Shown: positions 3,038 through 56,978 of the stretch, piece after piece
How the letters are laid out: the number at the start of each line of letters is the position of its first letter
How positions within the stretch are numbered: position 1 is the stretch's first letter
DNA from: a virus
Taxonomy: Duplodnaviria; Heunggongvirae; Uroviricota; Caudoviricetes
IMG/VR virus record: IMGVR_UViG_3300013094_000021
DNA length: 64,000 bases
Direction: 5' to 3' (one strand)
Program-made: the position numbers and the translations under genes
The notes under the pieces: generated by a model
The model's database searches: none
Told to the model about the DNA's origin: nothing
What the model saw: the letters and a program-made list of their open reading frames with translations, nothing else

Positions 3038-3920
3038 AAAATACCAAAAAAACCTATCAATACTCCTATACGTCGCTTCTTATCCGAATTTTAAATACAT
3101 CGTTGACGTATTTAATCCAAGTATTAGCGGATATTTCCAAATTCCATCACCACTAACCAAAGAAATAAATAAGTCTAAAGGCTGGAACGATTTTCTAAAT
3201 AGATGTTTTAATACGAAAGGAAAAAGAATAAAGGAAATAGTTTCCAGATATTTCAAGTCCTCAAATTTAGATATATTCTGTAGAGGTCTTTTATTTAAAA
3301 AATTAATAACAGTTGATGATTTTCTAAATAATTATGAAAAAATACAAAAACTTAACGAAATTAATTCATACAAATTAAAATCAATGAGATTTTTTCTTCG
3401 CAATTTCCATAGGGACACCATAATTAAATTCATTGATGAATCTAACCATGAAATTTATAAATTTTCTAACTTACACGACTCCGCCAATCAATTTTACTCA
3501 AACAAATCAAAAATTATACTTCCAAATTCAAATAACTTAAAATTCATCCACGACTACATTTCAGTTGAGGCTAGGAAAATTGAGAAGGAACCGATTGACT
3601 ACTCCGAAATAATAAAAAAATATTCAGAAATAAATAATCTAAAAATTAAAGATTTTTCAATTGAAATTCCTCCAAATAGCCATAAATTAATCGAATATGG
3701 TCAATTAATGAGTAATTGCATAGGCGGCTACTCAAATTATATGAAAAATCCGAATAATTTGATATTGTCGGTTTACAAATCTGGAAAGTTGAAGTATAAT
3801 ATAGCCATATCGAATAAAAAAATACATCAGTTCTACGGCGAGAGAAACAGCAAGCCGGACGAGAACGAATTTAAAGAAATAAGTCAATTATTAATTGAGA
3901 AAAATTTACTAGAAAATTGA
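2892..3920 (+). CDS. hypothetical protein (342 aa)
   Basis: long ORF, + strand; true start uncertain (overlap with 2636..3037). Confidence 0.4.
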   Translation: MDLIFHIQKQYRTATTLFVKNSTLKPQAEKNFKSILLKWLSRNEINIPRKYQKNLSILLYVASYPNFKYIVDVFNPSISGYFQIPSPLTKEINKSKGWNDFLNRCFNTKGKRIKEIVSRYFKSSNLDIFCRGLLFKKLITVDDFLNNYEKIQKLNEINSYKLKSMRFFLRNFHRDTIIKFIDESNHEIYKFSNLHDSANQFYSNKSKIILPNSNNLKFIHDYISVEARKIEKEPIDYSEIIKKYSEINNLKIKDFSIEIPPNSHKLIEYGQLMSNCIGGYSNYMKNPNNLILSVYKSGKLKYNIAISNKKIHQFYGERNSKPDENEFKEISQLLIEKNLLEN

Positions 3921-3923
3921 AAT

Positions 3924-4580
3924 ATGAACTTAAACCTGAATTCCTTTTCAGTTTTGGTTGTTAATCGCTCTTGGATGCCACTAGGAACGACTACCATAAG
4001 GAATGCCATAAAATCCTTATTCTCCTCTCCTAATGGCAATAGCATGGCCGCAAGACCATTTCTGATTGAATACGAGCAAACCGGCGAAGACACTTGGAAC
4101 TTTGAAAATCCAATTGTTATAAAACCAATAGACGTAGAGGAATGGCTAAATTTAAACATAAGACCGTTCGACAGATTTATATCATCTGCCAAACAAAAAG
4201 TCAGAATTCCAACCGTTATTCAGGCGGTTAATTGCGACAAAACTCATTTAAGAGATATTAAGCTAACTAGAAAAAATATTCTCGAAAGAGACGGCGACAT
4301 TTGCCAATATACTAACAAAAAACTACCTAGAAGCCAATTGAACATTGACCACGTTATTTCTAGGGACGAATGGAAAAGGCGCGGACTAGCTGGTTCACCC
4401 GATAACTGGGAAAATATGGTGGCTTGCGACAAAAGAATAAATTCTTTGAAAGGAAATAAATCCGCGCAAGAAGTCGGACTCTCTCTAATAAGAAAGCCTA
4501 AAAAACCACTTCCAGTTCCGGCCTCGGCAATGATAAAAGAAGTTAGGAACAAAGACTGGGAAATATTTCTATTAAAATAA
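3924..4580 (+). CDS. HNH endonuclease
   Basis: CQYTNKKL...NIDHVISRDEW...NMVACDKRINSLKGNK = HNH (Cys/His-Asn-His) motif. Confidence 0.6.
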   Translation: MNLNLNSFSVLVVNRSWMPLGTTTIRNAIKSLFSSPNGNSMAARPFLIEYEQTGEDTWNFENPIVIKPIDVEEWLNLNIRPFDRFISSAKQKVRIPTVIQAVNCDKTHLRDIKLTRKNILERDGDICQYTNKKLPRSQLNIDHVISRDEWKRRGLAGSPDNWENMVACDKRINSLKGNKSAQEVGLSLIRKPKKPLPVPASAMIKEVRNKDWEIFLLK

Positions 4581-5525: not shown

Positions 5526-5870
5526 ATGAGTGTAAATCAAAACGAAATGAGAAAAAGCATCGTTAAAATGGAGGAGGAAATTAATCAGCAGTTAGCTTGC
5601 CTTCAAGCTACCGCTCCGTTCCTTCTATCATTGAGGGCTAGAAAAATATCTGAACTTGAATACATAATTAAAAAAATGGAAACTGAGTTTTCCGACGAAT
5701 TAGAGACTCGCGCTCAAAGAGTTCACGCCGAAATAATTAACCTAGAAAAGAAAATAAATTGGGAGCAGCGCGAATGTTCAAGGTTTGATGAAAAAATTAT
5801 CAAATTCAATGAAGCTAAAGAAAACGACCTTTTGAAAAAATTCTCAAAGCAAATATTAAAAAACAATTGA
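5526..5870 (+). CDS. coiled-coil hypothetical protein
   Basis: 114-aa ORF, heptad-like charged sequence. Confidence 0.4.
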   Translation: MSVNQNEMRKSIVKMEEEINQQLACLQATAPFLLSLRARKISELEYIIKKMETEFSDELETRAQRVHAEIINLEKKINWEQRECSRFDEKIIKFNEAKENDLLKKFSKQILKNN

Positions 5871-5888
5871 AATAATTAAATAAAAACC

Positions 5889-6167
5889 ATGATAAAAAAA
5901 ATAAAAGAGACGCTAAAAAGCGGTTTATTTTACCTACTATTATTCTCTCCTTCAATAGTAATATTTTCCTTCTTATATCTTTCACAGGCCCGTCTTGAGT
6001 TTGAAAAACAAAGGAAGGACGGCGCAAGCAAATATCCATTAATTCAACTTATTACAACTCAAGACCCATTAGTAGAAGGAAATCAAATGTATGTATATGT
6101 AAGGCTTAGTGATAATACATTCGCTTGGATTAGTAAAAACGGTTTCTCTGTCAAAACCAGCTTCTAA
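5889..6167 (+). CDS. small membrane protein
   Basis: 92 aa, N-terminal hydrophobic helix. Confidence 0.3.
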   Translation: MIKKIKETLKSGLFYLLLFSPSIVIFSFLYLSQARLEFEKQRKDGASKYPLIQLITTQDPLVEGNQMYVYVRLSDNTFAWISKNGFSVKTSF

Positions 6168-10849: not shown

Positions 10850-11713
10850 ATGAAAACCAATCTACGCAAAGCAACTAAAGACTTCATGCTCGGAACCGAC
10901 CCCGAACTATTGCTTTCTCACGGCGGACAACCTGCAAAGTTTTTCGGACAAGCCCATGGAAAATTCGGACTTGACGGGAACGGCAGAACTTGCGAATTGA
11001 GAGTTGACCCTTCCGCCAATCCTCTCGAATTGGTTTCTCAAATCCACACTCTTTTCAAGGATTATGCCAAGAAATATCCAGTCTCTCTTAAATTCAATTG
11101 GGATGCTGGCTCGTTTGTTCACGGCTTTCCTATCGGCGGACACGTTCATTTTGGCGTCTCAAAGTTCAACCTAGACCACGCAACCGCAAGCGAAGTTATT
11201 TCAAATTATTGTGGCGCGCTATCTCTATGTATTGAAGATACAAAAGAGGCGAAAAGCCGCCGTCAAATCAAGGAATATGGCGGCTATCACGATTTCAGAC
11301 CCCAAGCGCACGGTTTTGAACACCGCAGTTTTTCAAGCTGGCTAACCAGTCCGGCGGTTGCTTCGGCGGTTTTGTGCCTCTGCAAGACGGTAATGTTTGA
11401 AATGCTCAACAATAAAGCGTTTTCTCCTACTCAATATTTCGACGCCAATACCTTCCACAAGGTAGAAAAGCAAGACATTAAAAAGAAATTTCCTTACGTT
11501 TGGAAAGAAATAACCGAAATGCAGCTTTATCCTAGATACAAAAAGCACATTGACGTTATCCATTTTCTAATTACAAAAGATTTGAGTTGGTATCCTAAAA
11601 ACTCTCTTAAAGAGGTTTGGGGGCTAACAGAATTCGCAGTTAAGGAAGAGCGAAAGATGATTTCACTAGACGAAATTTGGAAAACCAACAACAAAAATGA
11701 GCATAATTTTTAA
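10850..11713 (+). CDS. YbdK/GCS2-like carboxylate-amine ligase (amidoligase)
   Basis: N-terminal GTDPELLL (GxDxE) and GGHVHFGV (HxHxG) motifs typical of glutamine-synthetase-like amidoligases; paralogue of 20169. Confidence 0.5.
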   Translation: MKTNLRKATKDFMLGTDPELLLSHGGQPAKFFGQAHGKFGLDGNGRTCELRVDPSANPLELVSQIHTLFKDYAKKYPVSLKFNWDAGSFVHGFPIGGHVHFGVSKFNLDHATASEVISNYCGALSLCIEDTKEAKSRRQIKEYGGYHDFRPQAHGFEHRSFSSWLTSPAVASAVLCLCKTVMFEMLNNKAFSPTQYFDANTFHKVEKQDIKKKFPYVWKEITEMQLYPRYKKHIDVIHFLITKDLSWYPKNSLKEVWGLTEFAVKEERKMISLDEIWKTNNKNEHNF

Positions 11714-15258: not shown

Positions 15259-16101
15259 ATGTGCCGAATCGCAATTTTCCACAATTCAATTAAACGCTCC
15301 GAAGCTATCTCTATCTTGGAGAATATGCTTGGCGCAAACACACACGGGTGCGGCGAAGCCTATATAAAGGACGGCAAGTTTGTAGTTAATAAATACGCTC
15401 TTTCTCTAACGAATGTTTTGAAGCGCGGCAAACCATTCCTTAATCATCTTGGCGGACACCAAGGCTATACATTAGTCCATCTTCGCGCGGTTAGTGTCGG
15501 CGTTATTTGCCGCGATAATAGCCATCCTTTTGTATCTATGAACGGCAGAATTTGCCTAGTTCATAATGGAACTTGGAAGCAACATCGCCCACTTAATATG
15601 TATCTTCAAACCTGCTTGGGCTATAAATCCACTACTGACACGGCAGCAGCTACCGAATTGATTTCCAGAATTGGCGGCGAAGACTTTACCGAATCATTTG
15701 ATGACGCTGGCGTATTTTGTTTTTTAAATCAAAAAGGCGAGTTGCATATTTCAAAAACTAGCGGACAACTTGCAATTACTCGCCGCGAAGACAAATCAAT
15801 TTTGATTGCTTCCGAATTGGATGACGATAAGTATAAAAATCAAGAATTCGCAAGAGGTTATTACAAATTCGATTTGAACGCAAAAGTTATCAAATACAAG
15901 CCCAAAGAATACCATTGGCAAGGTCAATCATTCTCTGGCGGCAGTCGCGGATATGGAGTCTCCGATTGGTATCAAAGAACCTACGGACACGGTGCATTGC
16001 CAGCGCATTATCATGGCGAATCCAATCTTAAATATGATGCCGAAACCAATAATTTCGTTAGACAACCTAATGGCGGCATGGCTTACATGGGCGACGAATA
16101 A
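15259..16101 (+). CDS. class-II (Ntn) glutamine amidotransferase-like protein (second copy)
   Basis: MCRIAI N-terminus, HGCGEA, CLVHNGTW; Gly/Tyr-rich C-terminus. Confidence 0.5.
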   Translation: MCRIAIFHNSIKRSEAISILENMLGANTHGCGEAYIKDGKFVVNKYALSLTNVLKRGKPFLNHLGGHQGYTLVHLRAVSVGVICRDNSHPFVSMNGRICLVHNGTWKQHRPLNMYLQTCLGYKSTTDTAAATELISRIGGEDFTESFDDAGVFCFLNQKGELHISKTSGQLAITRREDKSILIASELDDDKYKNQEFARGYYKFDLNAKVIKYKPKEYHWQGQSFSGGSRGYGVSDWYQRTYGHGALPAHYHGESNLKYDAETNNFVRQPNGGMAYMGDE

Positions 16102-20168: not shown

Positions 20169-21065
20169 ATGAATAAAAATAACCAGTTCACTATCGGCGG
20201 CGACCCAGAGGTTTTTATCTCCGGCAAAAACGGCGAAATTCATTCATCCATTCCTATCCTTAAGCGCGACAAGCATAATCCGATTGTTCTTGACAAGAAA
20301 AGCGGCGTAAAGACTTATGCCGACAATTCTCTGGCGGAAATGGCTTTCAATCCAAGCAAAAGCAAGAAAGAGTTTGTCGAAAAATACCGCAAAGCCTTCC
20401 TCGGACTCCAAAAATATCTTGGCAAGAATTATCGAATCAAAATTCAATCCGCACACTTCTTTAAGGAAAACGAGCTTGAAGCCGCACATGGAATTGACCC
20501 GATGCAAGTCGGTTGTTCTCCTGAATTTAACCATTGGAAGCGCGAAGTTAATCAGCTTGGCGAATTCACCAATACAATGCGTTCCGGCTCGTCTCATATT
20601 CACATTGGACATGAAATGTTCAAAGATATCAACAACAAGGAGCGCGCCTTGAAGATGATTGAAATTTTCCTTGGTTGCTCCTCTGTCATTTGGGACAATG
20701 ACAAGACTTCTTCCGTTCGCCGCGAAAAATATGGCACAAGCGGCTCGTTTCGCCCCACCGATTATGGATTTGAAACGCGCTTTATGTCCAACTATATGCT
20801 CAATTCTCCGAAATTGGTTGAATTGGCATACGATTTGATTGAATTCTCTCTTTCCTTTGTTTTTAACGACAAAGACGCCGAAATTCTCTCAAAGGTTAGT
20901 GTTGAAGACGTTCAAAATGCAATTAATAAATGCGACAAAGATTTGGCCGTTTCGGTTTTGAAACAGGCCGGACTTACCGAAGAACTCTTCAAAAGAGTCG
21001 TCGAGCAATCCAAAAAGAGCTATTCCACGAAAGATTTCTACAAGGAGTGGGATATCAAAGTTTAA
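20169..21065 (+). CDS. YbdK/GCS2-like amidoligase
   Basis: GGDPEVFI and SSHIHIGHE motifs; paralogue of 10850. Confidence 0.5.
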   Translation: MNKNNQFTIGGDPEVFISGKNGEIHSSIPILKRDKHNPIVLDKKSGVKTYADNSLAEMAFNPSKSKKEFVEKYRKAFLGLQKYLGKNYRIKIQSAHFFKENELEAAHGIDPMQVGCSPEFNHWKREVNQLGEFTNTMRSGSSHIHIGHEMFKDINNKERALKMIEIFLGCSSVIWDNDKTSSVRREKYGTSGSFRPTDYGFETRFMSNYMLNSPKLVELAYDLIEFSLSFVFNDKDAEILSKVSVEDVQNAINKCDKDLAVSVLKQAGLTEELFKRVVEQSKKSYSTKDFYKEWDIKV

Positions 21066-21897: not shown

Positions 21898-22548
21898 ATG
21901 AATAAAACCAAAAGAATCGCCTACGTTATCGGCGTCGGCAATCAAGATTACGGCTATGGCAATTGGATGCAGATAGATAGATTCACAAACGATATTCGCG
22001 AGGCTAATTTTTGCATAGGTCTTGGCGGCAGCGACGTTTCACCAAGTTTTTATAATATGCCAGACAGCGGGCTTTGCCATTCCGTTTATTCTGTGGATAT
22101 TCAGGAATACAAAGACTACAAAAAAGCGATTGAATTGAAGAAAAAAATCGTCGGCATTTGCAAAGGTAGCCAATGGCTTTCAGTTTTGGCGGGCGGCAAA
22201 CTTTTCCAGCATATTGACCACGACTATATCCACAAAATCAAAACCTTTGATGGAAAAGAGCTTTTAACCAATAGCCTACATCATCAAATGAGCGACTTGG
22301 AAGAATTGGCCGAAAACTCCGATTACAAATTGCTCGCATGGTCTGAAAGTCTTTCCAATTTTCATATTGACGGAAATAGCGATGACAGAAAATGCAGCAA
22401 AGAACCGGAAGCAATTCTCTTTCCGAAAATCAATGGACTCGGCTTTCAAATGCACCCAGAAATGATTTTTAAGTCGGCTGGCAAGAATCATCCTTTTATT
22501 AATTGGAGCAGAGAAATACTTAATAAATTTTTGGATAATAAATTGTGA
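21898..22548 (+). CDS. class-I glutamine amidotransferase-like / peptidase C26 (gamma-glutamyl hydrolase-like)
   Basis: IGLGGSDVSPSFYN, ICKGSQWLSVLAGG, HHQM, FQMHPE (Cys-His catalytic pair context). Confidence 0.55.
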   Translation: MNKTKRIAYVIGVGNQDYGYGNWMQIDRFTNDIREANFCIGLGGSDVSPSFYNMPDSGLCHSVYSVDIQEYKDYKKAIELKKKIVGICKGSQWLSVLAGGKLFQHIDHDYIHKIKTFDGKELLTNSLHHQMSDLEELAENSDYKLLAWSESLSNFHIDGNSDDRKCSKEPEAILFPKINGLGFQMHPEMIFKSAGKNHPFINWSREILNKFLDNKL

Positions 22549-22883: not shown

Positions 22884-23675
22884 TTGAAAACAATCAATCT
22901 CTACAATCTTAAGAATGTTAAAGTTATCTTATTTCCAGATAACCAGCCTCACGTTATCATTGAAAACATTCAAGCTGGCGATGAAGTTAGACTTGTCGCG
23001 CCACTTCGCACAAGTCTTGAAGTCCTTCAAATGCTGGAAGTATCGAATGCCATAGATGAAATTGGCGCAATCAAGAAAGATTTGGTAATTCCATACCTAA
23101 TGGGCGCAAGATTCGACAGAATCATGCAAACCGGAGACAGTTTCGACCTTAAAGTAATTGCTAATTTGATTAATTCTTGCAATTTTCCAGTAGTTAATCT
23201 TTTTGATGTTCACAGCAAGGTTTCCACTGATTTAATTAAAAACTCTCGCAGCCATAACAATAGCAAGCTTTTAAAGGCTTACGACAAGAAAAATGTTGTT
23301 TTGATTTGCCCAGACAAAGGCGCGCTAGGACGAGTTGACTTTTACAAGCAAAATCTTGATATTAAAGACGTTGTTTATTGTGAAAAAAGCCGCGATTTGA
23401 GCAACGGCAACTTAACTCTGACCGTTAAAAATCCTGAAAAATGCGAAGGGCAAAATTGCGTTTGTGTTGATGACATTGCCGATGGCGGTGGGACGTTTCT
23501 TGCTATCGCCTCTCAAATCAATCCCGCACATTTTACTCTTATAGTTAGCCACGGCATTTTTAGCAAAGGTTTTTTAAAATTAGAGGAGTTTTTTGACGAA
23601 ATTATTACGAGCAACAGCTATCGAAAAAACTACGAAAGTAATATAGTTAAGGTGGTAGATTTAAATCTCTATTGA
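22884..23675 (+). CDS. ribose-phosphate pyrophosphokinase (Prs)-like protein; possibly an ADP-ribose pyrophosphokinase (Adps-like)
   Basis: IPYLMGARFDR (cf. IPYFGYARQDR), VCVDDIADGGGTF PRPP-binding loop. Confidence 0.6.
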   Translation: MKTINLYNLKNVKVILFPDNQPHVIIENIQAGDEVRLVAPLRTSLEVLQMLEVSNAIDEIGAIKKDLVIPYLMGARFDRIMQTGDSFDLKVIANLINSCNFPVVNLFDVHSKVSTDLIKNSRSHNNSKLLKAYDKKNVVLICPDKGALGRVDFYKQNLDIKDVVYCEKSRDLSNGNLTLTVKNPEKCEGQNCVCVDDIADGGGTFLAIASQINPAHFTLIVSHGIFSKGFLKLEEFFDEIITSNSYRKNYESNIVKVVDLNLY

Positions 23676-23771: not shown

Positions 23772-25235
23772 ATGAATCTAAAAACCAATTCTTTTCTTTT
23801 TTGCGACTTCTATAAGTGCGGCCACCCTTTCCAATATCCAGACAAGACTCAATTTGTTTACATTAATTGGACGGCGCGCGGCTCTCGCCTTGAAGGAATT
23901 AATGACATGGTATTTTTCGGCCTTCAATATTTTATTAAAGGCTATCTTATCCAAAACTTTAATGATAATTTTTTCAAACGTCCAAAAGACGAAGTTATGG
24001 CCGAATATAAGCGCATTATTCGCAATTCTCTTGGCGGCGATTTGCCTACTTATAGCCATATTGAAAAGCTTCACGATTTAGGTTATTTGCCTATTAAAAT
24101 CAAAGCTCTTCCAGAGGGCGTTAAAGTTCCTATGCGCGTTCCCTGTTTGACTATACTCAACACGCTTGAAGACTTCTATTGGCTTCCGAATTTTATTGAA
24201 ACCTTAATGTCGTCGGTTTTGTGGTTGCCTTGTAATTCGGCAACAATTGCCAATGCCTATCGAAAACTTTTGGATGGTTACGCCGAAAAAACAGGAATGC
24301 CAAAAGAATTTGTTCAATGGCAAGGACATGACTTTAGCTTTCGCGGAATGAGTTCCTTTGAAAGCGCAGTTACTTCCGGCATGGGTCACTTGCTATCCTT
24401 CACCGGAACGGACACCGTTCCGGCGATTGTAGGACTTGAACAATACTATAACGCCAATAGCGACAAAGAACTTATCGGCGGTAGCGTTCCAGCTACGGAG
24501 CATAGCGTTATGTGTTCTGGAGAGAAAGATAACGAACAAGAAACATTTGAAAGACTAATTACAAAAATCTATCCTAATGGAATCGTATCAGTTGTTTCTG
24601 ATACTTGGGATTTGTGGAGAGTTTTGACTGAATATCTTCCTAATTTGAAAGATAAAGTTATGGCTCGTAACGGAAAGCTTGTTATTCGTCCAGATAGCGG
24701 CGACCCCGTTTTGATTATTTGCGGCAATCCAGACGGAAAAACCGAAGCGGAGCGCAAAGGCGTAGTTGAATTGCTTTGGGATGTTTTCGGCGGAACGGTT
24801 ACAAGCAAAGGATTCAAGTTGCTTGACAGTCACGTTGGAGCGATTTATGGCGATAGCATCACGCTAAAAAGAGCGGATGAAATTTGCTCTCGCTTGATGG
24901 CTAAAGGATTCGCTTCGCAAGTCGTTTTCGGTATTGGAAGCTTCACCTATCAATACAATACTCGCGACACTCTAGGCTCTGCGGTTAAAGCCACTCATGT
25001 AACCATTGACGAAAAAGATATTAGTATCTCTAAAAATCCTATCACCGATAGCGGACTCAAAAAATCGGCCTGTGGATTGTTGCAGGTTGCAAAGGAAAAC
25101 GGAAAATACGTCCTGCATGATAACGTATCTTGGATTAAAGAAGCGCAGGGCGAATTGCAAACCGTATTTGTGGACGGAAAACTTGTTAAGGAATGGACGC
25201 TTTCAGAAGTAAGAAATAATCTAGCTAATTCTTAA
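23772..25235 (+). CDS. nadV: nicotinamide phosphoribosyltransferase family protein (NadV/NAMPT or Namat-like)
   Basis: DFYKCGH, FFGLQYFI, GTDTVPA, VPATEHS, VVSDTWD, IRPDSGDP all align with NAMPT signature blocks; 487 aa. Confidence 0.8.
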   Translation: MNLKTNSFLFCDFYKCGHPFQYPDKTQFVYINWTARGSRLEGINDMVFFGLQYFIKGYLIQNFNDNFFKRPKDEVMAEYKRIIRNSLGGDLPTYSHIEKLHDLGYLPIKIKALPEGVKVPMRVPCLTILNTLEDFYWLPNFIETLMSSVLWLPCNSATIANAYRKLLDGYAEKTGMPKEFVQWQGHDFSFRGMSSFESAVTSGMGHLLSFTGTDTVPAIVGLEQYYNANSDKELIGGSVPATEHSVMCSGEKDNEQETFERLITKIYPNGIVSVVSDTWDLWRVLTEYLPNLKDKVMARNGKLVIRPDSGDPVLIICGNPDGKTEAERKGVVELLWDVFGGTVTSKGFKLLDSHVGAIYGDSITLKRADEICSRLMAKGFASQVVFGIGSFTYQYNTRDTLGSAVKATHVTIDEKDISISKNPITDSGLKKSACGLLQVAKENGKYVLHDNVSWIKEAQGELQTVFVDGKLVKEWTLSEVRNNLANS

Positions 25236-25238
25236 TCT

Positions 25239-26024
25239 ATGACTAAAGAAAAATTAAAAATTTCAGAGCCTAAAAAAAATAGGGGCGCCCTATCCGAAGG
25301 TAGAAACAGAGGATTCGGCCAGTGTTTTGTTAAAAAAGTTGGTAATTTAATTGAAATGCCTTACCCTATAAGTGCTTGCGGCGACTTCATTAACGACCAA
25401 TTACATTCGCAAGTAACCGGAAAAAGCTGGAATATCCACGGGCAAAACAGTCAGAGGCACGAGGGGCTTTTTGACGAAAAAAATAATTGCGCCTATATGC
25501 TTGGCTCGGTTTTAACCATAAACAGAGGCGGCAAATACGACAACTACGACAGAGATTTGAAATGTCTGGAATCTAATTACTCTCATTTAGAAAAATTTAT
25601 TAATTTCTTTGAGAAATCTTTTAAATTAAAGAAAAAAACTTCCATTACTAGAATCAAGGAAAATTTGTATCTATTTAAATTACCTTTGTTTTGGACGGAA
25701 TCAATTTATTTAATTTCTCTTTATAAATTCCTGTCTCGCGTCGGTATTTTTTATGATGGCGGGAATCCTATGGATTTTTTGAATTCATTTGATAAGGACT
25801 CTGGCGACGTTTATATGTGGAGTTCAATCAAACCTAAAATAATCTCCATGATGAAAGGATTTATACCTAAATTTCCAATGAGCGCATGGGATGGTTGCCC
25901 GCATAATCTAGGGATTGTTTCGCAAATTTGGCCTAAAGAGGAAATGCAAAAACAATCTCAAAGAGCCAATATATCATCTAAAAAAATTACCGCGACCGAA
26001 AGACAGATTTGGAAGCCAATTTAA
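25239..26024 (+). CDS. hypothetical protein
   Basis: 261-aa ORF immediately after NAMPT gene. Confidence 0.45.
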   Translation: MTKEKLKISEPKKNRGALSEGRNRGFGQCFVKKVGNLIEMPYPISACGDFINDQLHSQVTGKSWNIHGQNSQRHEGLFDEKNNCAYMLGSVLTINRGGKYDNYDRDLKCLESNYSHLEKFINFFEKSFKLKKKTSITRIKENLYLFKLPLFWTESIYLISLYKFLSRVGIFYDGGNPMDFLNSFDKDSGDVYMWSSIKPKIISMMKGFIPKFPMSAWDGCPHNLGIVSQIWPKEEMQKQSQRANISSKKITATERQIWKPI

Positions 26025-26070
26025 TCCATAATTAAGTTGACAGGATAAAAAAATCCTTCATAATAATTAC

Positions 26071-27258
26071 ATGAAAGTTTTCACTAACGGCAGAGTTCCA
26101 ATCAAAAGCTGGTGCAATAATCCAGAAGCGGGAGCAATCGAACAGGCTACCAATCTCGCCAATCTTCCTTTTATCTTTAAATGGCTCGCTTTGATGCCTG
26201 ACACTCACCAAGGCTACGGAATGCCGATTGGCGGCGTTTTGGCGACCAATGGAGTCGTAATACCTAATGCGGTTGGTTCTGACATTGGCTGTGGAATGAG
26301 TTTCATCGAATCTGATATCAAAGAATGGGGCAGAGAGGATTTAATTGAAATTTTAAAGACTATCCGCGCCACTATTCCAGTTGGCTTCAACAAGCACAAA
26401 GTAAAGAAAACATCCGACTCAATTCCGTCTATTGAATCTCAATTCTCTAATGGCGAAAACCTCCCTATAATCAGAAAAGAGTTTGATAATGCTCTTTTTT
26501 CTGTTGGGACGCTCGGCGGCGGCAACCATTTTATTGAATTGCAAAAAAACGAATCCGGCAATCTTTGCGTTATGATTCATTCCGGCAGTCGAAATCTTGG
26601 CAAAAAAGTTGCCGACCATTACAATAAGCTCGCCGAAGAACTGAATTCAAAATACTTCTCTAGCGTTCCAAAAGAATATGATTTAGCTTTTTTGCCGCTT
26701 GATTCATCCGAAGCGCAGGAATATATTTCTGAAATGAATTATTGTGTTAATTTTGCATTGGCTAATCGTATGCAAATGATTTTTGAATGTAGAATGGCTA
26801 TTTGCGAGGCTTTTCAAAACAAGGTTGAAAAGGTTAATTTTTCTAATTTTATTAATATACCCCACAATTACGCCAGACTGGAAAATCATTTCGGCGAAAA
26901 TGTTATGGTTCATCGCAAGGGAGCGACCTCTGCGAAATTAAATGAATTAGGATTAATTCCGGGTTCGCAAGGTTCTAGTAGCTATGTCGTTCGCGGCAAA
27001 GGAAATGTCAATAGTTTTTCCAGTTGCTCGCACGGCGCGGGCAGAAAACTTGGGCGCAAAGAAGCTCAAAGAACGCTCAACATCGAAGAGGAAAAAAATC
27101 GTTTGGAAAAACTTGGCGTAATCCACGCCATTAGAAGCGTTGATGATTTAGATGAGGCTGCGGGCTCCTATAAGGACATTGACGTAGTTATGGAAGAGCA
27201 AAAGGATTTGATTGAAATCGTCCAAAAACTTCAACCTCTGGCGGTTGTAAAAGGGTAA
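26071..27258 (+). CDS. rtcB: RNA-splicing ligase RtcB
   Basis: MPDTHQGYGMPIGGV, GSDIGCGM, GGGNHFIEL, PHNYA, SCSHGAGR conserved RtcB metal/GTP-binding motifs; 395 aa. Confidence 0.85.
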   Translation: MKVFTNGRVPIKSWCNNPEAGAIEQATNLANLPFIFKWLALMPDTHQGYGMPIGGVLATNGVVIPNAVGSDIGCGMSFIESDIKEWGREDLIEILKTIRATIPVGFNKHKVKKTSDSIPSIESQFSNGENLPIIRKEFDNALFSVGTLGGGNHFIELQKNESGNLCVMIHSGSRNLGKKVADHYNKLAEELNSKYFSSVPKEYDLAFLPLDSSEAQEYISEMNYCVNFALANRMQMIFECRMAICEAFQNKVEKVNFSNFINIPHNYARLENHFGENVMVHRKGATSAKLNELGLIPGSQGSSSYVVRGKGNVNSFSSCSHGAGRKLGRKEAQRTLNIEEEKNRLEKLGVIHAIRSVDDLDEAAGSYKDIDVVMEEQKDLIEIVQKLQPLAVVKG

Positions 27259-27268
27259 TAAAATATCC

Positions 27269-27296
27269 TTGACAATTAAAGGATATCCTTTATAAT
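27269..27296 (+). promoter_or_regulatory. consensus promoter upstream of rsr with 80-nt leader
   Basis: ccttgacaattaaaggatatcctttataat. Confidence 0.55.
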
Positions 27297-27378
27297 AAAT
27301 TTGTCGTGGCGAAGTTTAGAGTTACTTCACTTGTTATGGAAAAACACTTTAAACGCTTATTCCCGACACTAAATTTAC

Positions 27379-28686
27379 ATGAAATCAAATAAAAAAGAAT
27401 TGGTTGAAAAATTAACCGAAGAAGGCGCGAAAGCCGCGCATATTACGCCTTATCAATCGCTTCGCCGCTCGGTTTTATCCACACTCCTTTTTGAAGACAA
27501 CTTTTATGAAGACGGAATTTCCGTATCTGAAAGAATTAAAGAATTAATTAAAGCCGTTTCGCCGGAAAAAGTCGCGGATTTGGCGATTGAAGCCAGAACT
27601 AAATTCAAGCTTCGCCATATACCTCTTTTTTTGGTTCGCGAATTGGCTCGTTACGAAAAATCAAGATACCTTGTGGCCGAAACTTTGTCGGCGGTTATTC
27701 AAAGACCGGACGAATTGGGGGAATTCCTTTCTCTTTACAACAAAGACGGAAAGCAACCTTTGGCCGCATCCGTCAAAAAAGGCTTGTCTCGCGCCTTCCA
27801 AAAGTTTGACGAATATTCTCTTCAAAAGTATAACGGTGGAACTCCCGAATATAAACTTCGCGACGTTCTTTTCCTCTGTCACGCCAAACCAAAAAATGAA
27901 GAGCAGGAAAATCTTTGGAAAAAATTGATTAATAATCAATTGGAAACGCCGGAAACTTGGGAAACCAAAATCGGCAAAGATGGTAAAAAAGAAGCTTGGG
28001 AGTCTCTTTTGCACGAAAGAAAGCTTGGCTCTCTCGCTCTTTTGAGAAATTTGAGAAACTTCAAAGTAAATGGAGTATCAGAGAAATTAATTAAATCCGC
28101 CATTTCGGAAATGAAAACCGATAGAGTCCTGCCTTTTAGGTTTATCACCGCCGCGAAATATTATCCTTCCCTTGAATCAGAACTGGAAGGCGCGATGTTT
28201 AAATGCTCAAAAAACATTGATAAAGTCAGCGGAAAGACTCTTCTTCTTATTGACGTTTCCGGCTCAATGGATAAGCCTCTATCCTCAAATTCTGAAATGA
28301 CTAGACTTGAGGCGGCTAATTCTTTGGCTATTCTAGCGCGCGAAATCTGCGAAGAAGTTAAAGTATTTACTTTTTCCAAGCAAATCATTGAAATTCCAGC
28401 TAGACGCGGATTTTCCTTGAGAGACGCTATTAACAGTAGCCAGCCTCACAAAGACACCTATCTGGGCGCGGCAATTAAATATTTAAACGAAAATGAATCA
28501 TTTGAAAGATTAATTGTTATTTCTGACGAACAATCGGACGATGAAGTTCAATTTCCTAAATGCCCGAAAGCATACATGATAAATGTAGCCAACAACAAAA
28601 ACGGAGTAGGCTACAATAAAAATTGGATTAATATTTCTGGTATGTCGGAGTCGGTTTTCGACTATATTCAAAATATTGAAGAATAA
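27379..28686 (+). CDS. rsr: Ro60-related protein Rsr (TROVE domain + C-terminal vWA/MIDAS)
   Basis: N-terminal TROVE-like region (LLFEDNFYEDG..., HIPLFLVRELA), C-terminal LLLIDVSGSMDKPL MIDAS motif; adjacent to rtcB as in bacterial rsr-rtcB operons. Confidence 0.6.
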   Translation: MKSNKKELVEKLTEEGAKAAHITPYQSLRRSVLSTLLFEDNFYEDGISVSERIKELIKAVSPEKVADLAIEARTKFKLRHIPLFLVRELARYEKSRYLVAETLSAVIQRPDELGEFLSLYNKDGKQPLAASVKKGLSRAFQKFDEYSLQKYNGGTPEYKLRDVLFLCHAKPKNEEQENLWKKLINNQLETPETWETKIGKDGKKEAWESLLHERKLGSLALLRNLRNFKVNGVSEKLIKSAISEMKTDRVLPFRFITAAKYYPSLESELEGAMFKCSKNIDKVSGKTLLLIDVSGSMDKPLSSNSEMTRLEAANSLAILAREICEEVKVFTFSKQIIEIPARRGFSLRDAINSSQPHKDTYLGAAIKYLNENESFERLIVISDEQSDDEVQFPKCPKAYMINVANNKNGVGYNKNWINISGMSESVFDYIQNIEE

Positions 28687-28729
28687 ATTTGACATATAAA
28701 TTTTATTCTTTATAATCAATTCGTAAACT

Positions 28730-29308
28730 ATGTCGTCAACCTCATACAAGTCAATCTCTAATGACACCAAGGAACTATGTTCCGCTGCGTATGCCGGATT
28801 AAAGCTGGCTAAAACCGAAATTCCTTATATGCAACACGCGGAGCGAGTAAAGGATATTTCCTTTGCCTATGCAATCTCCGGCAAGCATTCACCGATGGTT
28901 ACGGAAGCGTATGACCTAATCTGCCATTTTGGATTTAGCGTAGCTTCATTTTATTCTATTCTTGACGTTGTTTCTTTGGCGCATGACGTTGAAAATGTCG
29001 CTTGCAGTCGGGGTTTTGACAATAATTGGATTCTTAAAAACCTCAAACAAAGAAATCCAGAAACCAGAGACGACTTCTTTTTTCTAATTAAATCCTCTCT
29101 TAATGCTGTGACCTACGGCAAAGAGGATAAATTTTGGGATAGACTAAATAAAGCCAAAAAAGAACCAATCGCAAGAATTGTCGCCTATTCAAAACTTCAC
29201 TTTCTTTTAAATGAAGTTCAGAATCTTCCATCCGGCGAAAAAACCAAGTTTGAAAACGCAAGAGAAATCCTGCTTGGAAACAAAGTCAAAAAACTTAAGA
29301 TTTATTAA
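28730..29308 (+). CDS. hypothetical protein, possible HD-domain phosphohydrolase
   Basis: MQHAERV ... LAHDVEN spacing resembles H...HD motif; weak. Confidence 0.35.
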   Translation: MSSTSYKSISNDTKELCSAAYAGLKLAKTEIPYMQHAERVKDISFAYAISGKHSPMVTEAYDLICHFGFSVASFYSILDVVSLAHDVENVACSRGFDNNWILKNLKQRNPETRDDFFFLIKSSLNAVTYGKEDKFWDRLNKAKKEPIARIVAYSKLHFLLNEVQNLPSGEKTKFENAREILLGNKVKKLKIY

Positions 29309-29325
29309 TCAATTTAAAAAACTAT

Positions 29326-29742
29326 ATGCCAATCTCAATTAATTCAAAAGACTTCAATCTTCAAGAGATTTACGCCGCCGCAAAGCTGCAAAACACAGCA
29401 ACGGCATACAATTTCCGCCTTTACGGACTCAAAAACTCCAATAATCCTGCGGTTTTGATTGGTAAGACCAATTTTCACAATAATAATTTCGACCGAATCG
29501 CCGAATTATTCAATAAAAACAAAATTTCTCTTGAATTTGAATCTGTCAGACAAGAGGATAACGAAAAAAACTTTATCTACATCGGCTTGAGACACGATTT
29601 GAGACACGATATCGGACTTTCTGCCGCCATTGTCACTACGATTATTCATCAAATAGAAGGCAATATAAAAGACTTCGACACTAATTTCAAGATTAAAACT
29701 AAATCATTTAAAAAGAAAGCCGCCGCCAAAGCCAAAAACTAA
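29326..29742 (+). CDS. hypothetical protein (paralogue of 11697..12080)
   Basis: see 11697. Confidence 0.45.
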   Translation: MPISINSKDFNLQEIYAAAKLQNTATAYNFRLYGLKNSNNPAVLIGKTNFHNNNFDRIAELFNKNKISLEFESVRQEDNEKNFIYIGLRHDLRHDIGLSAAIVTTIIHQIEGNIKDFDTNFKIKTKSFKKKAAAKAKN

Positions 29743-29837
29743 AAACAAAGAAGTAAAAGAATCTATAAAAAAATCTATAAAAGAACTCAATGTAATTTTC
29801 GGCACTAACACTGAAGAATAAATTTAATTTAAAAATC

Positions 29838-30149
29838 ATGTTTGATTACAAAAAAGCCAACGCTTCCAGCGAATTTCCATCCGCCGAAAAAGTAAAGGAA
29901 ATTTACGATTCTGTTCACGTTGATTTTACCAAGGAGAATTTTCAAAAACTGCTTGAGAGAAATGTTGAAATGGACTTGGCCTTAAGTCACCTAATCGCCT
30001 TTTCTCGTCGAATCTGGGATGAAACTGAAATGGTTTCCGGCTGCATAAAGCTAAAAGATATCGAGGAGATTTTGAAAAGAAATGATTTAGTTCTTGGTCA
30101 AATCGCCGAAGCGCCTTTAGTCCTAAAAAAAACCGAAAACAATCCTTGA
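29838..30149 (+). CDS. hypothetical protein (paralogue of 30639..31016)
   Basis: shared LLERNVEMDLALS / LLIRNIEMDLMLS and ERNDxxLG blocks. Confidence 0.4.
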   Translation: MFDYKKANASSEFPSAEKVKEIYDSVHVDFTKENFQKLLERNVEMDLALSHLIAFSRRIWDETEMVSGCIKLKDIEEILKRNDLVLGQIAEAPLVLKKTENNP

Positions 30150-35477: not shown

Positions 35478-36209
35478 ATGAAAAACACAAAAAAGCCTGT
35501 CATTGGTATTACCGGCCCCTCTCAATTCACCGCTCAAGTCCGTGAAATGGTGTCCGATTTTTTCGGCTCAATTCCTTTGGATATCAACCAGAACGGCTAT
35601 AACGATTTGAAGCAAATCGCGGAAGTTTGCGATGGCTTTATTTTTGCTGGCGGCGTTGATTTGTTTCCAGCGACCCTAGACAGAGAGATTTTGACCGGAA
35701 AAGGCTACTCAAAATTTGACCGCAAGCGCGACCTTCGCGAAATTAATCTAATTAAAATTGCGGGCGAACAAGGTAAATCAATTTTCGGCATTTGTCGCGG
35801 CCATCAAATGTTGCTCTCCAATCGCGGCCTTTATCTTATTCCAGATATTAGCGGAATTTCCGATGTTTGCCATAGCCCCAGAGAGATTGAAACCAATAAC
35901 GAGCCAATCCATTTCGTTCGTGGCATCGGAAAAGGTGTCGCTGAATTCGGCGAAAGAGAATTAGTTAATAGTTATCACCATCAAGCCATCCTTTACGGAG
36001 ATAAAGCCAAACAAAATAAAGAAGTGGAAATTCTTGGTATATCTAGCGTGTCTTTTGCCAGAGGCGAAAATACCGGCGTTAAAATCGTCGAACTCGCCAG
36101 AGGCGACGGCTTTCTTTCCTGCCAATGGCATCCAGAACTAGACTGGAAAAACGTCGAATCATCTAAAAAAGTTTTGACAATGGCAAAGAAAATGTTCAAT
36201 ATTGAATAA
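35478..36209 (+). CDS. class-I glutamine amidotransferase-like / peptidase C26 (second copy)
   Basis: FIFAGGVDLFP, ICRGHQML, NSYHHQAI, CQWHPE. Confidence 0.55.
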   Translation: MKNTKKPVIGITGPSQFTAQVREMVSDFFGSIPLDINQNGYNDLKQIAEVCDGFIFAGGVDLFPATLDREILTGKGYSKFDRKRDLREINLIKIAGEQGKSIFGICRGHQMLLSNRGLYLIPDISGISDVCHSPREIETNNEPIHFVRGIGKGVAEFGERELVNSYHHQAILYGDKAKQNKEVEILGISSVSFARGENTGVKIVELARGDGFLSCQWHPELDWKNVESSKKVLTMAKKMFNIE

Positions 36210-41324: not shown

Positions 41325-42356
41325 ATGAAAAATACTACTTTAAAATTGGCTATTAGCGCGGCTCTCGTCGCGACAATGATTGGCTCAACTGGCTGCATTA
41401 AGCCGCCAAAAGTGCCCGACACGAAGGAAATCAAACCCAATGAGACGGCTTGGGTTATTCCATTGGAAGGGTCATCGCAGTCTGGACAAACTAAATTCAA
41501 TTCGGTTGAATTTTTGGAGCAGCACAAGGTTGCGACTAAACGTATCTGGATTGATAAGGCTGAGAAGCCAATTGGACGCTTTTCTTGGGAAATCGAATGG
41601 ATTCCTGCCGTTCGCGTTATTACGGTTGACAGAAGCCTAGTTACTAGAGAATGGACTGACAATACTCAAACCGGAACATCTTCCGGCAACCAAGGTATTC
41701 CAGTTAATACAAAAGATAATATCGGCCTTACCATTGGACTGACAATCACCGCCTCAATTGATGAGGACGACGCTTCAACATACCTATATTATCACGGTGA
41801 AAAGGCATTGGCCGATGTTGTGGATTCAAATGTAAGAAGTTTTGCGGTAGCTGAATTGAATCGCCAAGTTTCTTCACTTACTCTAGTGGATTTTCAGCAA
41901 CAACAACCGCAAATTTACGCAACGCTATTTAAAGACACCGCCGCCTATTACAAAACCAAAGGCGTAACCATTCAATACCTTGGAAATGCCGAAGGCTGGC
42001 ATTTCATACACAAGGAAATTCAAGATTCAATTGATAAATCCTTTATCACTCAACAAGATAACAAGACTGCCGAAATGGAACAAAACGCTCAAAAGACCAG
42101 AAACGATACTCAAATTCTAATCAATAAAACTGATAACGCAATCAAGGTTGCAACTGCACAGGCCGAAGTTGACGCCGCCACAAAACTTGAGGGCGCAAAA
42201 GAAGCCGCATTGTTTAGAAACAATCTTCAAGTTCAACTCTTGAACGCTCAAGCTAAAATGCAAATGGCTACCAAGTGGGACGGAAAGATGCCATCAAACA
42301 TTTTGCCTGAAAACTCTCCGATGCTACTCAACATGGGGACTTCAACAAATAATTAA
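41325..42356 (+). CDS. lipoprotein with C-terminal coiled-coil
   Basis: signal + lipobox (ATMIGSTGC), Ala/Gln-rich coiled coil near C-terminus. Confidence 0.5.
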   Translation: MKNTTLKLAISAALVATMIGSTGCIKPPKVPDTKEIKPNETAWVIPLEGSSQSGQTKFNSVEFLEQHKVATKRIWIDKAEKPIGRFSWEIEWIPAVRVITVDRSLVTREWTDNTQTGTSSGNQGIPVNTKDNIGLTIGLTITASIDEDDASTYLYYHGEKALADVVDSNVRSFAVAELNRQVSSLTLVDFQQQQPQIYATLFKDTAAYYKTKGVTIQYLGNAEGWHFIHKEIQDSIDKSFITQQDNKTAEMEQNAQKTRNDTQILINKTDNAIKVATAQAEVDAATKLEGAKEAALFRNNLQVQLLNAQAKMQMATKWDGKMPSNILPENSPMLLNMGTSTNN

Positions 42357-43802: not shown

Positions 43803-44009
43803 AATTATTTAATTTAATTTCAGTGTTAATTCTTTCATTCGCTATCAGGTTTTTGTTAATTGAATTTTACTGGTGGTTTAAATTCAATATTTACTGGCCT
43901 TTTGTTTTCTGGATAACTTGGAAAGATTGGTATATTAATCTAATAATTAAATACCGAGAAATAAAAAAGAAACTCTTGACATAAACATTAATTTCTTTAT
44001 CATTGATAT

Positions 44010-56850: not shown

Positions 56851-56978
56851 GAGTGCGTGGCGAAATGCAAAGACGCAAGCTGGAGATGCTACTTGTAGCG
56901 GAAACCAGATAGTGTGCGACCTGAAATCGCGAGCAGAACTCGAAACACTTGCAGGTTCAAATCCTGCCGCACTTAACA
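56851..56978 (+). ncRNA. 128-nt tRNA-like structured RNA (acceptor-like stem + canonical T-arm flanking a ~100-nt branched insert); candidate Y-RNA-like / tRNA-mimic
   Basis: 5' gagtgcg pairs 3' cgcactt; T-arm gcagg-TTCAAAT-cctgc with G53-C61; internal hairpins gctac-ttg-gtagc, ctgg...ccag, agtgt...acact; no CCA, no 7-nt anticodon loop. Confidence 0.45.

Follow-up and report, generated by a model that had tools for sequence, protein, structure and literature searches.

In Salmonella Typhimurium, RtcB and Rsr are encoded in the RNA repair operon rsr-yrlBA-rtcBA (Chen et al. 2013; Hughes et al. 2020, PMC7790460), and linkage of RtcB, Rsr and Y RNA has been documented across several bacterial phyla (PMC7790460; bioRxiv 10.1101/312249). 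The Y RNAs YrlA and YrlB have been described from bacteria and mycobacteriophages (Chen et al. 2014, PMC4201824; Wang et al. 2018, bioRxiv 10.1101/312249). Characterised Y RNAs are 80-130 nt long and are recognised by the motif GNCGAAN0-1G near the 5' end and by being encoded on the rsr strand at most ~4 kb away (PMC4201824). YrlA is defined by a tRNA-like effector domain composed of a T-arm, an acceptor-like hairpin and a D-arm. The Ro60 protein of Thermus phage phiLo is accompanied by the RNAs Yrl1 and Yrl2 (Hu et al. 2025, PMC12135203; PDB 9L5Y, 9KOP), and ROT/TROVE proteins together with RtcB have been reported from jumbo phages (Iyer et al. 2021, PMC7824862). Direct cooperation of RtcB, Rsr and Y RNA was hypothesised by Burroughs & Aravind 2016, as cited in bioRxiv 10.1101/312249. 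Phage Ro60 proteins, phage Y RNAs, phage Ro60/Y RNA pairs and RtcB-Y RNA-Rsr modules are already published.

Here we analyse a locus in a 64,000-nt stretch of viral DNA (the window), which we interpret, with a probability of roughly 0.8, as a phage-borne RNA repair and surveillance module consisting of RtcB, a short Y RNA and the Ro60 protein Rsr. It comprises the following features:

26037..26064, + strand: sigma-70-type promoter of rtcB, TTGACA-16-CATAAT, with the -10 hexamer ending 6 nt before the ATG
26071..27258, + strand: rtcB, 395 aa, by family an RNA 3'-phosphate/2',3'-cyclic-phosphate to 5'-OH ligase
27269..27296, + strand: perfect sigma-70-type promoter, TTGACA-16-TATAAT, with predicted start at G27303
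27303..27367, + strand: short Y RNA-like element, 65 nt, in the 120-base gap between rtcB and rsr
27379..28686, + strand: rsr, 435 aa, Ro60-related protein with a TROVE/HEAT-repeat ring and an inserted vWA domain
28252..28269, + strand: DVSGSM codons (residues 292-297), the DxSxS part of the MIDAS metal site
28689..28716, + strand: perfect sigma-70-type promoter of the next gene, marking the 3' limit of the module
28730..29308: gene downstream of rsr, 192 aa, no function assigned

The parallel with the Salmonella operon, drawn already in the preliminary description of this DNA, is valid (PMC7790460): both loci combine RtcB, Rsr and a GNCGAAN0-1G Y RNA on one strand within 3 kb. However, the locus is phage-borne here and chromosomal there, the order is rtcB, Y RNA, rsr instead of rsr, yrlB, yrlA, rtcB, rtcA, and there is one short Y RNA without the tRNA-like YrlA of Salmonella. 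RtcA was not found among the Pfam matches of the 91 window ORFs (six further families, all weaker than 4.4e-5, stand outside the matches listed), and no end-healing (Pnkp-type) family occurs among the Pfam matches listed for these ORFs. Unlike in Salmonella, there is no RtcR/sigma-54 control, and rtcB and the Y RNA/rsr unit each follow a consensus sigma-70-type promoter. With regard to the jumbo phages, the accessible part of the published survey (PMC7824862) gives no Y RNA coordinates, whereas in the present locus the two genes are neighbours, with the RNA mapped to the gap that separates them. Among GenBank jumbo phages we inspected Gurke, CcrColossus and RsoM2USA, in which RtcB does not occur within 4 kb of the TROVE gene.

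The viral origin of the window is borne out by its PHROG families, which include a clamp loader, endonuclease VII, homing endonucleases and a phiEco32-like ligase. A megablast search with positions 25000..30000 against GenBank phages returned no match, and judging from sequence identity (helicase ~32%, Rsr at most 49% and RtcB at most 41%) this is a phage without a close cultured relative. The module is flanked by genes for a Prs-like protein and NAMPT and by genes of no assigned function. Two metallophosphoesterases are also encoded in the window, and we draw no link between them and the module. In the two closest relatives (L005 and L007) the TROVE gene is followed by a gene of 194 or 196 aa, with an HD_4 domain in L007; the 192-aa gene downstream of rsr was considered as its counterpart, and thus as a conserved partner, and was rejected, as BLASTP detected no similarity between them.

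The RtcB and Rsr proteins

The product of 26071..27258 matches the RtcB family over the entire profile (PF01139, E 1.5e-108, positions 1-426 of 426) and the "tRNA splicing ligase" family of PHROG (phrog_1075, E 1.6e-111), while its scores against the NCBIfam subfamily models are under the cut-offs, and therefore no equivalog subfamily was assigned. Alignment to Pyrococcus horikoshii RtcB identified D71, C74, H153, H170 and H281 as the metal ligands and H321 as the guanylylated nucleophile. These residues, together with N152, lie opposite the blocks DINCG, GNHF, VHTGSR, VHRKGAT and CHGAGR and within the conserved blocks DIGCG, GNHF, IHSGSR, VHRKGAT and SHGAGR (alignment to 1UC2/4DWQ). The metal-binding and guanylylated residues of P. 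horikoshii RtcB are D95, C98, H203, H234, H329 and H404. Thus RtcB, which the preliminary description had recognised from its conserved blocks, is full-length and intact at every catalytic position, including the His and Cys residues whose loss would have spoken against it, and is predicted to be active as a ligase.

The identification of 27379..28686 as a Ro60/Rsr orthologue with TROVE and vWA/MIDAS parts is likewise upheld, with profiles, residues and predicted fold in agreement. Of the profile matches foreseen for this ORF, that to TROVE was obtained (PF05731, 59.3 bits, cut-off 23), but those to the vWA models fell slightly below the Pfam cut-offs of ~27 (vWA_Ro60, 25.0 bits; VWA_2, 26.0 bits). 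Along its full length Rsr matches phrog_850 (E 1.7e-51), and residues 13-389 match the crystallised phiLo Ro60 (phmmer E 9e-26). In addition to D292, S294 and S296 of the DVSGSM motif, the MIDAS site is completed by T360 and D383; all five residues are invariant in 24 homologues and correspond in the alignment to the DVSGSM, T and D blocks of phiLo Ro60, which carry its Ca2+ ligands. The AlphaFold2 model (mean pLDDT 84.1, pTM 0.77) contains a beta-alpha-beta domain at residues 283-420, and its top 13 PDB matches reported by Foldseek are all Ro60/Rsr structures from phiLo, Xenopus, human and D. radiodurans (E 3e-21 to 6e-13, query-normalised TM 0.60-0.74). By computation, then, Rsr adopts the Ro60 fold and its MIDAS site is intact; it may close into a ring, although it falls 65-100 aa short of the length of characterised Ro60 proteins.

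The best PDB match in both searches is phiLo Ro60 (phmmer E 9e-26; Foldseek E 3e-21, TM 0.74), to which Rsr is 26% identical (435 versus 502 aa). The two systems agree in that Ro60 is phage-encoded, small CGAA-containing Y-like RNAs lie directly upstream and the MIDAS ligands align. They differ in that the accessible part of the phiLo report (PMC12135203) mentions no adjacent RtcB, that the phiLo Yrl RNAs were chosen by motif and folding whereas the family presented below is backed by covariation, and that PNPase binding, shown for phiLo Ro60-Yrl, is a conjecture for Rsr.

The element between rtcB and rsr and its RNA family

The preliminary description supposed that the partner Y RNA of Rsr is encoded elsewhere in the genome. 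Covariation, position and strand point instead to the gap between rtcB and rsr, where the partner most likely lies at 27303..27367, as a predicted RNA with the following parts:

27303-27306/27364-27367 and 27308-27309/27362-27363, + strand: outer stem with bulged U27307
27308-27314, + strand: GGCGAAG, the GNCGAAN0-1G motif (PMC4201824)
27314-27322/27346-27354, + strand: inner 9-bp stem
27323-27328, + strand: family-invariant UACUUC
27340-27344, + strand: A-run
27355-27361, + strand: 3' motif GCUUAUU

Like YrlA and YrlB, this element has a terminal stem formed by its 5' and 3' ends, carries the published motif as GGCGAAG and shares its strand with rsr at a distance below 4 kb; its 3' end is 11 nt upstream of the rsr ATG. 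There is no T-arm or D-arm, and only 23 nt separate the strands of the inner stem. Since it has no tRNA-like domain, we class it with the short, YrlB-like Y RNAs instead of with YrlA. Its similarity is to the minor "second" Y RNAs (YrlB, Yrn2), from which it departs by an A-rich loop with the invariant UACUUC, theirs being described as small and pyrimidine-rich. Its predicted length of 65 nt is below the published range of 80-130 nt. Neither a terminator nor a recognisable processing site was found between the element and the rsr ATG. Folded as a single sequence, the leader gains little over shuffled versions of itself (z -1.5), so that the case for a Y RNA rests on comparative data.

To this end a covariance model, R1, was built from a seed alignment of 7 elements, one of which is that of the window. 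R1 produced 382 matches in 246 homologous loci (IMG/VR, 169; JGI metagenome, 90; GTDB genome, 119; CcrColossus loci, 4), in all cases on the strand of the TROVE gene. The RNA usually lies immediately upstream of that gene, with a median gap of 45 nt between the last element and the ATG and many gaps of 6-30 nt. In the family alignment 94.8% of cells are paired, compared with 61% in shuffled alignments and ~50% when the partner strand is slid, the covariation score is 0.878 versus 0.217, and double (compensatory) changes occur at 15/15 base pairs. The outer stem, including the bulged U, is retained in 99% of cells and shows compensatory changes at 6/6 pairs. From an independent MAFFT alignment of the window copy with 29 non-seed elements RNAalifold returned the same structure, again with 15/15 pairs compensatory. 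The family consensus is GG[U/C]G[A/U]AG, most members having GGUGAAG or GGUGUAG and not GNCGAA. Long members carry the permuted T-arm, acceptor-like hairpin and D-arm of YrlA, whereas the window copy is a short form and not YrlA proper. Hence 27303..27367 belongs to a large, strongly covarying RNA family, the long members of which are YrlA-type Y RNAs. The window contains a single copy, itself a seed; the best other R1 match scores 13.8 bits (E 0.2, filters off).

The Rfam Y_RNA/YrlA scan that had been proposed as a check was run with Rfam 15 on the whole window and on the 161-nt gap alone, and it reported no Y RNA at the gathering threshold or at E <= 10. Rfam also misses clear YrlA-type RNAs in two relatives (L001 and L002), so its negative result in the window is uninformative. 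R1 recovers hundreds of short and long Y RNAs beside TROVE genes in viral, metagenomic and Acidobacteriota sequences; none of its elements is detected as a Y RNA by Rfam 15, and annotation pipelines based on Rfam will therefore miss them.

Possible relationship between RtcB, the putative Y RNA and Rsr

The promoter at 27269..27296 has a predicted start, G27303, that lies 7 nt past the -10 hexamer and is the first base of the Y RNA element. For most strong promoters of the window a start codon follows at 6-23 nt, so that their mRNAs should be leaderless or nearly so; for rtcB, with its -10 hexamer 6 nt from the ATG, a leaderless mRNA is predicted. The distance between -10 hexamer and ATG is 6-23 nt for the neighbouring genes but 82 nt for rsr, and this long space is taken up by the Y RNA element. 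If transcription begins at G27303, the Y RNA would form the 5' end of the rsr transcript, from which it would be either cut off or kept attached as a leader; the former happens in M. smegmatis, where processing of a single precursor upstream of rsr yields YrlA and YrlB (PMC4201824). The outer surface of Rsr is predicted to bind the helix with the bulged U and GGCGAAG, and the resulting RNP could then act on host or phage RNA, perhaps by passing structured or damaged RNA to the host PNPase or by damping PNPase, as does phiLo Ro60-Yrl (PMC12135203). Meanwhile, RtcB would reseal tRNA or rRNA cut by host nucleases to 2',3'-cyclic-phosphate/5'-OH ends. RtcB and Rsr may work together, and the kit might counter anticodon nucleases or ribotoxins, as the preliminary description proposed.

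Thirteen other loci show the same order of RtcB, Y RNA(s) and Rsr. RtcB occurs within 5 kb of the TROVE gene in 5/163 and 8/80 other loci (~5%), and in each of these it lies upstream on the same strand and is separated from rsr by Y RNAs (13/13 loci). This constancy, the linkage reported across bacterial phyla and the lack of a detectable terminator between rtcB and the Y RNA, which makes co-transcription by read-through possible, argue against the view that RtcB and Rsr-Y RNA are independent accessory cassettes placed side by side in a mosaic early-gene region, with Rsr-Y RNA, for example, attenuating the host PNPase and RtcB alone handling cleaved tRNA. Although we favour the common module, this view is a serious contender that falls short of even odds: rtcB and rsr have separate consensus promoters, ~95% of the 243 homologous loci, including both closest relatives (L005 and L007), lack RtcB at distances of up to 5 kb from the TROVE gene, in phiLo no RtcB is involved when Ro60-Yrl binds and attenuates PNPase (PMC12135203), and the flanking genes are functionally unrelated. 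Thus the rarity of RtcB near the TROVE gene and the separate promoters mean that functional coupling is not required.

The layout of the leader allows a further, tentative and rather improbable proposal, namely that the Y RNA and the rsr mRNA are one primary transcript starting at base 1 of the Y RNA, that maturation of the one is coupled to translation of the other, and that the Y RNA is a minimal, effector-less form. If true, the rsr mRNA would retain a leader of at most 11 nt once the 65-nt Y RNA had been cut off; Y RNA maturation would be mechanically coupled to Rsr translation, with one RNA per mRNA, or Rsr would regulate itself by binding the leader; and the phage Ro60 would run on a Ro60-binding module and an A-rich loop, without a tRNA-like effector.

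With its 3' end only 11 nt from the rsr ATG, the element could also be read as a cis-acting 5' leader, an Rsr-binding operator that autoregulates Rsr translation. It spans the distance from the predicted start to 11 nt before the ATG with no terminator between, the last copy in relatives usually abuts the start codon (the gaps given above), and the other leaders of this phage are absent or very short. We nonetheless consider it distinctly unlikely as an alternative to a Y RNA. Relatives have 2-4 tandem copies, some of them 3' of the TROVE gene or >1 kb upstream, which fits independent RNAs better than a leader, and the long members are of the YrlA type, which in Salmonella and M. smegmatis comprises stable Rsr-bound RNAs (PMC4201824). 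Moreover, roles as a cis-leader and as a trans-acting Y RNA are mutually compatible.

Under the preferred reading of a common module, the compact trio of RtcB, a 65-nt Y RNA with a promoter-defined 5' end and a small Ro60 of 435 aa would be a convenient minimal system in which to study the roles of Ro60-Y RNA in infection and their cooperation with RtcB.

tRNA and tRNA-like RNAs elsewhere in the window

Further RNAs in the window are:

47967: tRNA-Met(CAU), beside the tRNA-Arg(UCU)
48118: tRNA-Arg(UCU), canonical, 45.2 bits
~56849..56977: structured tRNA-like RNA with its own near-consensus promoter

The preliminary description had named a tRNA at 48118 and a tRNA mimic at 56851 as candidates for the partner; both are real RNAs, but neither qualifies for this role, the former as a canonical tRNA and the latter as an RNA that R1 does not match. 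The RNA at 56849..56977 was tried as a YrlA-type partner. The start predicted from its promoter coincides with its 5' end, a 9-bp terminal stem adjoins a canonical T-arm, and the octamer GTGGCGAA is common to this RNA and the rsr-leader element; it would also be conceivable for a second RNA to provide the tRNA-like module that the Y RNA beside rsr does not have. However, R1 gives no match to it at E <= 10 with filters off, and it has neither the 3' UUGUUCC motif nor the permuted YrlA layout. A functional partner at ~56849..56977 or 48118 is therefore very improbable, the former being 28 kb from rsr while Y RNAs lie within 4 kb (PMC4201824 and all 382 R1 matches) and the latter a standard tRNA-Arg. 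ARAGORN calls the RNA at 56851 at lowered thresholds only, as a dubious intron-containing tRNA. The shared octamer GTGGCGAA is part of a D-arm that resembles those of class II tRNAs, and unrelated viral contigs have tRNA-like genes with the same pattern.

The rtcB-rsr module and its two proteins

The rtcB-rsr module represents a phage form of an already published system, to which the present analysis adds a Y RNA, in a minimal form, between the two genes. Its parts are as follows.

26071..27258, + strand: rtcB, 395 aa, RtcB ligase
27269..27296, + strand: sigma-70-type promoter, perfect TTGACA-16-TATAAT, in the 120-nt rtcB-rsr gap
27303..27367, + strand: Y RNA-type element, 65 nt, in the same gap, after the promoter
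27379..28686, + strand: rsr, 435 aa, Ro60/Rsr-type protein

Both ORFs lie exactly where the preliminary description had placed an RtcB with its conserved blocks and a Ro60/Rsr orthologue, and both assignments stand. RtcB matched Pfam PF01139 end to end (E 1.5e-108, profile positions 1-426 of 426) and PHROG 1075 'tRNA splicing ligase'. The phmmer alignment to Pyrococcus horikoshii RtcB located the catalytic residues D71 and C74 in GSDIGCG, N152-H153 in GGGNHF, H170 in MIHSGSR, H281 in VHRKGAT and H321 in CSHGAGR. In P. horikoshii RtcB these blocks hold the two metal sites and the guanylylated histidine; computation thus shows the predicted active site to be intact.

Rsr exceeded the threshold of the TROVE profile PF05731 (59.3 bits, cut-off 23) and matched PHROG 850 over its full length, while two vWA Pfam models scored 25-26 bits, slightly below their cut-offs. 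By sequence, the nearest PDB entry is the Ro60 crystal structure from Thermus phage phiLo (E 9e-26, over residues 13-389). DVSGSM occupies residues 292-297, and D292, S294, S296, T360 and D383, invariant in an alignment of 24 homologues, align with the phiLo Ro60 blocks that contain the Ca2+ ligands. A Foldseek search of the PDB with the AlphaFold2 model (pLDDT 84.1, pTM 0.77) returned only Ro60/Rsr structures among its best 13 matches (phiLo, Xenopus, human, Deinococcus; TM 0.60-0.74 relative to the query). At the level of the predicted model, a Ro60 fold with a MIDAS, the metal site of the vWA domain, is thereby shown by computation.

The short Y RNA and its family

The partner Y RNA had been expected elsewhere in the genome; the element carrying both covariation and the recognition motif was found instead in the rtcB-rsr gap itself, at 27303..27367. 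Its GGCGAAG (27308..27314) is an exact instance of GNCGAAN0-1G, the motif tied to Rsr recognition (Chen et al. 2014, PMC4201824), and its position agrees with that used by the same authors (<=4 kb, same strand). We conclude that the element belongs to the YrlA/YrlB family of Y RNAs as a short member. In sequence it is a minimal form, with the Ro60-binding module kept and the tRNA-like effector domain absent.

An equivalent architecture precedes the TROVE gene in the two closest relatives (66% and 62% identity): L005 has three copies of the element or relatives of it, L007 has two. It is also present in the IMG/VR contigs L001 and L002, which add long versions with T-arm and D-arm. Seven short copies formed the seed alignment, from which the covariance model R1 was built. 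The terminal stem of the seed varies yet pairs (GUCG/CGAC, ACGG/CCGU, GGGC/GCCC, GACCG/CGGUC); an invariant bulged U, a GG/CC pair, a [U/C]G[A/U]A motif and an inner 9-bp stem are shared, as is the order UACUUC, A-run, CGCUUGUUCC. Run over the window with filters off, R1 found 27303..27367 only (next best 13.8 bits, E 0.2). Among loci collected via the protein alone it gave 169 matches in 84 viral loci, 90 in 80 metagenome loci, 119 in 80 GTDB genome loci (mainly Acidobacteriota/Terriglobia) and 4 in Caulobacter phage CcrColossus. All matches outside the window (382/382) share their strand with the TROVE gene. Almost all of them precede it, usually in tandem sets of 2-3 copies, with a median spacing of 45 nt from the last copy to the TROVE ATG.

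In the model-fitted alignment of 136 distinct sequences, standard pairs fill 94.8% of cells; shuffling lowers this to 61%, and sliding the 3' partner to 43-57%. The covariation score is 0.878 vs 0.217, and double changes occur in 15/15 pairs. Because this alignment was fitted by the model, RNAalifold was also applied to the window element and 29 non-seed elements aligned by MAFFT alone; it recovered the same structure, with compensatory changes in 15/15 pairs and UACUUC invariant. What computation shows here is thus an adjacent, predicted Y RNA whose protein-binding helix is conserved. The long members (110-132 nt) have GGUUCRAAUCC T-arms, an acceptor-like hairpin and UAGCUCAGUUGGUAGAGC D-arms, in the permuted order of YrlA (as described in PMC4201824; bioRxiv 10.1101/312249).

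Rfam 15 detected none of these elements, in the window or the relatives, as Y RNAs; in the relatives it reported tRNAs only, one of them a borderline match to part of a YrlA-type RNA in L001. The Rfam Y_RNA/YrlA scan put forward in the preliminary description therefore gives a false negative, Rfam 15 being blind to the family: no Y RNA was reported despite YrlA-type RNAs in the relatives.

About two thirds of the short members (alignments A3 and A5) have a small 7-nt-loop hairpin directly after UACUUC, whose loop appears enriched for C-U-N-N-N-A-A, a signature resembling that of an anticodon loop; in the window it reads UUCA-CUUGUUA-UGGA (27326..27344). It is probably the counterpart of the YrlA variable-arm hairpin. 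Between the Y RNA copies of the closest relative, L005, a small element (5851..5912, GGGGAGG...CCGUCCCCGCCA) could be a minihelix with an encoded GCCA tail at its end. A lone GenBank 'tRNA-Ser' of Brevundimonas phage Gurke (3802..3876) and a lone 'tRNA-Gln' of CcrColossus (3158..3225, near the four R1 matches at 2749..3938) each lie in an extended non-coding region immediately before the TROVE gene, and may be Y RNA tRNA-like domains rather than true tRNAs.

Other structured RNAs in the window

47967..48042: tRNA-Met(CAU), ARAGORN/Rfam
48118..48193: tRNA-Arg(UCU), ARAGORN; Rfam 45.2 bits
~56849..56977, + strand: tRNA-like RNA, about 128 nt, with its own promoter (56814..56841) and a predicted start at the RNA 5' end

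Two other sites had been proposed for the partner Y RNA. That at 48118 is rejected as the tRNA-Arg(UCU) identified by ARAGORN and Rfam; its anticodon stem has two non-standard pairs in the Rfam alignment, and transcription from its promoter (48080..48108) would begin no more than a few bases from the mature 5' end. The RNA at 56851 is a real structured RNA, with a 9-bp terminal stem abutting a canonical T-arm (GCAGGUUCAAAUCCUGC), a class II tRNA-like D-arm (GCGAAAUGCAAAGACGC; GCGAAAU...GACGC) and several internal hairpins where a normal anticodon arm would be expected. It shares the octamer GTGGCGAA with the Y RNA, but there the octamer is part of the D-arm, and R1 did not match it in the window with filters off; it too is rejected as the partner. 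ARAGORN calls it at lowered thresholds only and the Rfam tRNA model gives 17.8 bits, and it is neither a confident tRNA nor a member of the Y RNA family. Unrelated IMG/VR contigs have this same arrangement, in which long insertions replace a normal anticodon arm, and similar ones occur in the IMG/VR loci L170, L172, L176, L177 and L179.

Transcription, gene neighbourhood and possible function

The + strand of the window has 43 promoters within one mismatch of TTGACA-16/18-TATAAT (e.g. 26037..26064, 43976..44003, 48806..48834, 54166..54193, 57347..57374, 60632..60660). Twelve of them, that of rtcB included, end 6-7 nt before an ATG, and a large share of the phage genes, rtcB among them, is therefore predicted to yield leaderless mRNAs; several others end 9-23 nt from the ATG. 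No Shine-Dalgarno sequence can be seen ahead of rtcB, rsr or the gene that follows them. The exception is rsr, with 82 nt from promoter to ATG, occupied by the Y RNA. Since its first base, G27303, lies just past the promoter, 7 nt after the -10 hexamer, and the RNA fills the 82 nt, its 5' end is probably set by transcription initiation. No terminator was detected between the Y RNA and the rsr ATG at 27379, so that the 3' end would need processing, much as in M. smegmatis, where a precursor encoded upstream of rsr is processed into YrlA and YrlB (PMC4201824).

RtcB is encoded no more than 5 kb from the TROVE gene in 5/163 metagenomic and viral loci and 8/80 genome loci; it is absent from that interval in L005 and L007, and three GenBank jumbo phages lack it within 4 kb of that gene. 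In every locus that has it nearby, RtcB precedes rsr on the same strand and R1 places Y RNA matches between the two genes, which is the order of the window. The association thus recurs without being obligatory, in agreement with the rsr-yrl-rtcB(A) clusters of several phyla (PMC7790460; bioRxiv 10.1101/312249) and with the combination of RNA ligases and a ROT/TROVE protein noted in some large phages (PMC7824862). The Salmonella operon has RtcA and RtcR/sigma-54, whereas the window module has sigma-70-type promoters and RtcA was not found among the Pfam matches listed for the window ORFs.

We propose that Rsr would bind the bulged-U/GGCGAAG helix, and that the particle would channel structured or damaged RNA to host PNPase, as in the RYPER complex of D. 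radiodurans/Salmonella. Alternatively, it might damp PNPase, as shown for phiLo Ro60-Yrl (PMC12135203). RtcB would reseal RNAs cut to cyclic-phosphate/5'-OH ends. Counter-defence against anticodon nucleases or ribotoxins is plausible and would fit the phage tRNAs and the NAD+ salvage pair adjoining rtcB upstream:

22884..23675: ribose-phosphate pyrophosphokinase-like gene, phrog_619, E 6e-58
23772..25235: NAMPT gene, NF006629, 573 bits

Given this pair, the region may serve as an auxiliary or counter-defence island; the ORF between NAMPT and rtcB (25239..26024, 261 aa) had no family match.

The window is viral. Its ORFs are almost all on the + strand, with PHROG/Pfam matches to a clamp loader, endonuclease VII, HNH and GIY-YIG homing endonucleases, a UvrD-type helicase, pyrimidine-dimer glycosylase, phiEco32-type COOH-NH2 ligases and YopX. 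No close cultured relative was found; the same sequence occurs on Logan assemblies SRR6476468 and SRR6476446. A 343-aa protein (41325..42356) gave a borderline Band_7/SPFH match (23.3 bits, cut-off 23.6) and matched phrog_200 'lipoprotein'; in some bacteria, Band-7 proteins with an associated tRNA-like RNA are reported to adjoin RtcB (Burroughs & Aravind 2016, as cited in bioRxiv 10.1101/312249). Two phiEco32-type COOH-NH2 ligases and several glutamine amidotransferase/peptidase C26 genes (10850..11713, 20169..21065, 15259..16101, 21898..22548, 35478..36209) make up a gene set known from large phages; L005 has these families beside its TROVE gene as well.
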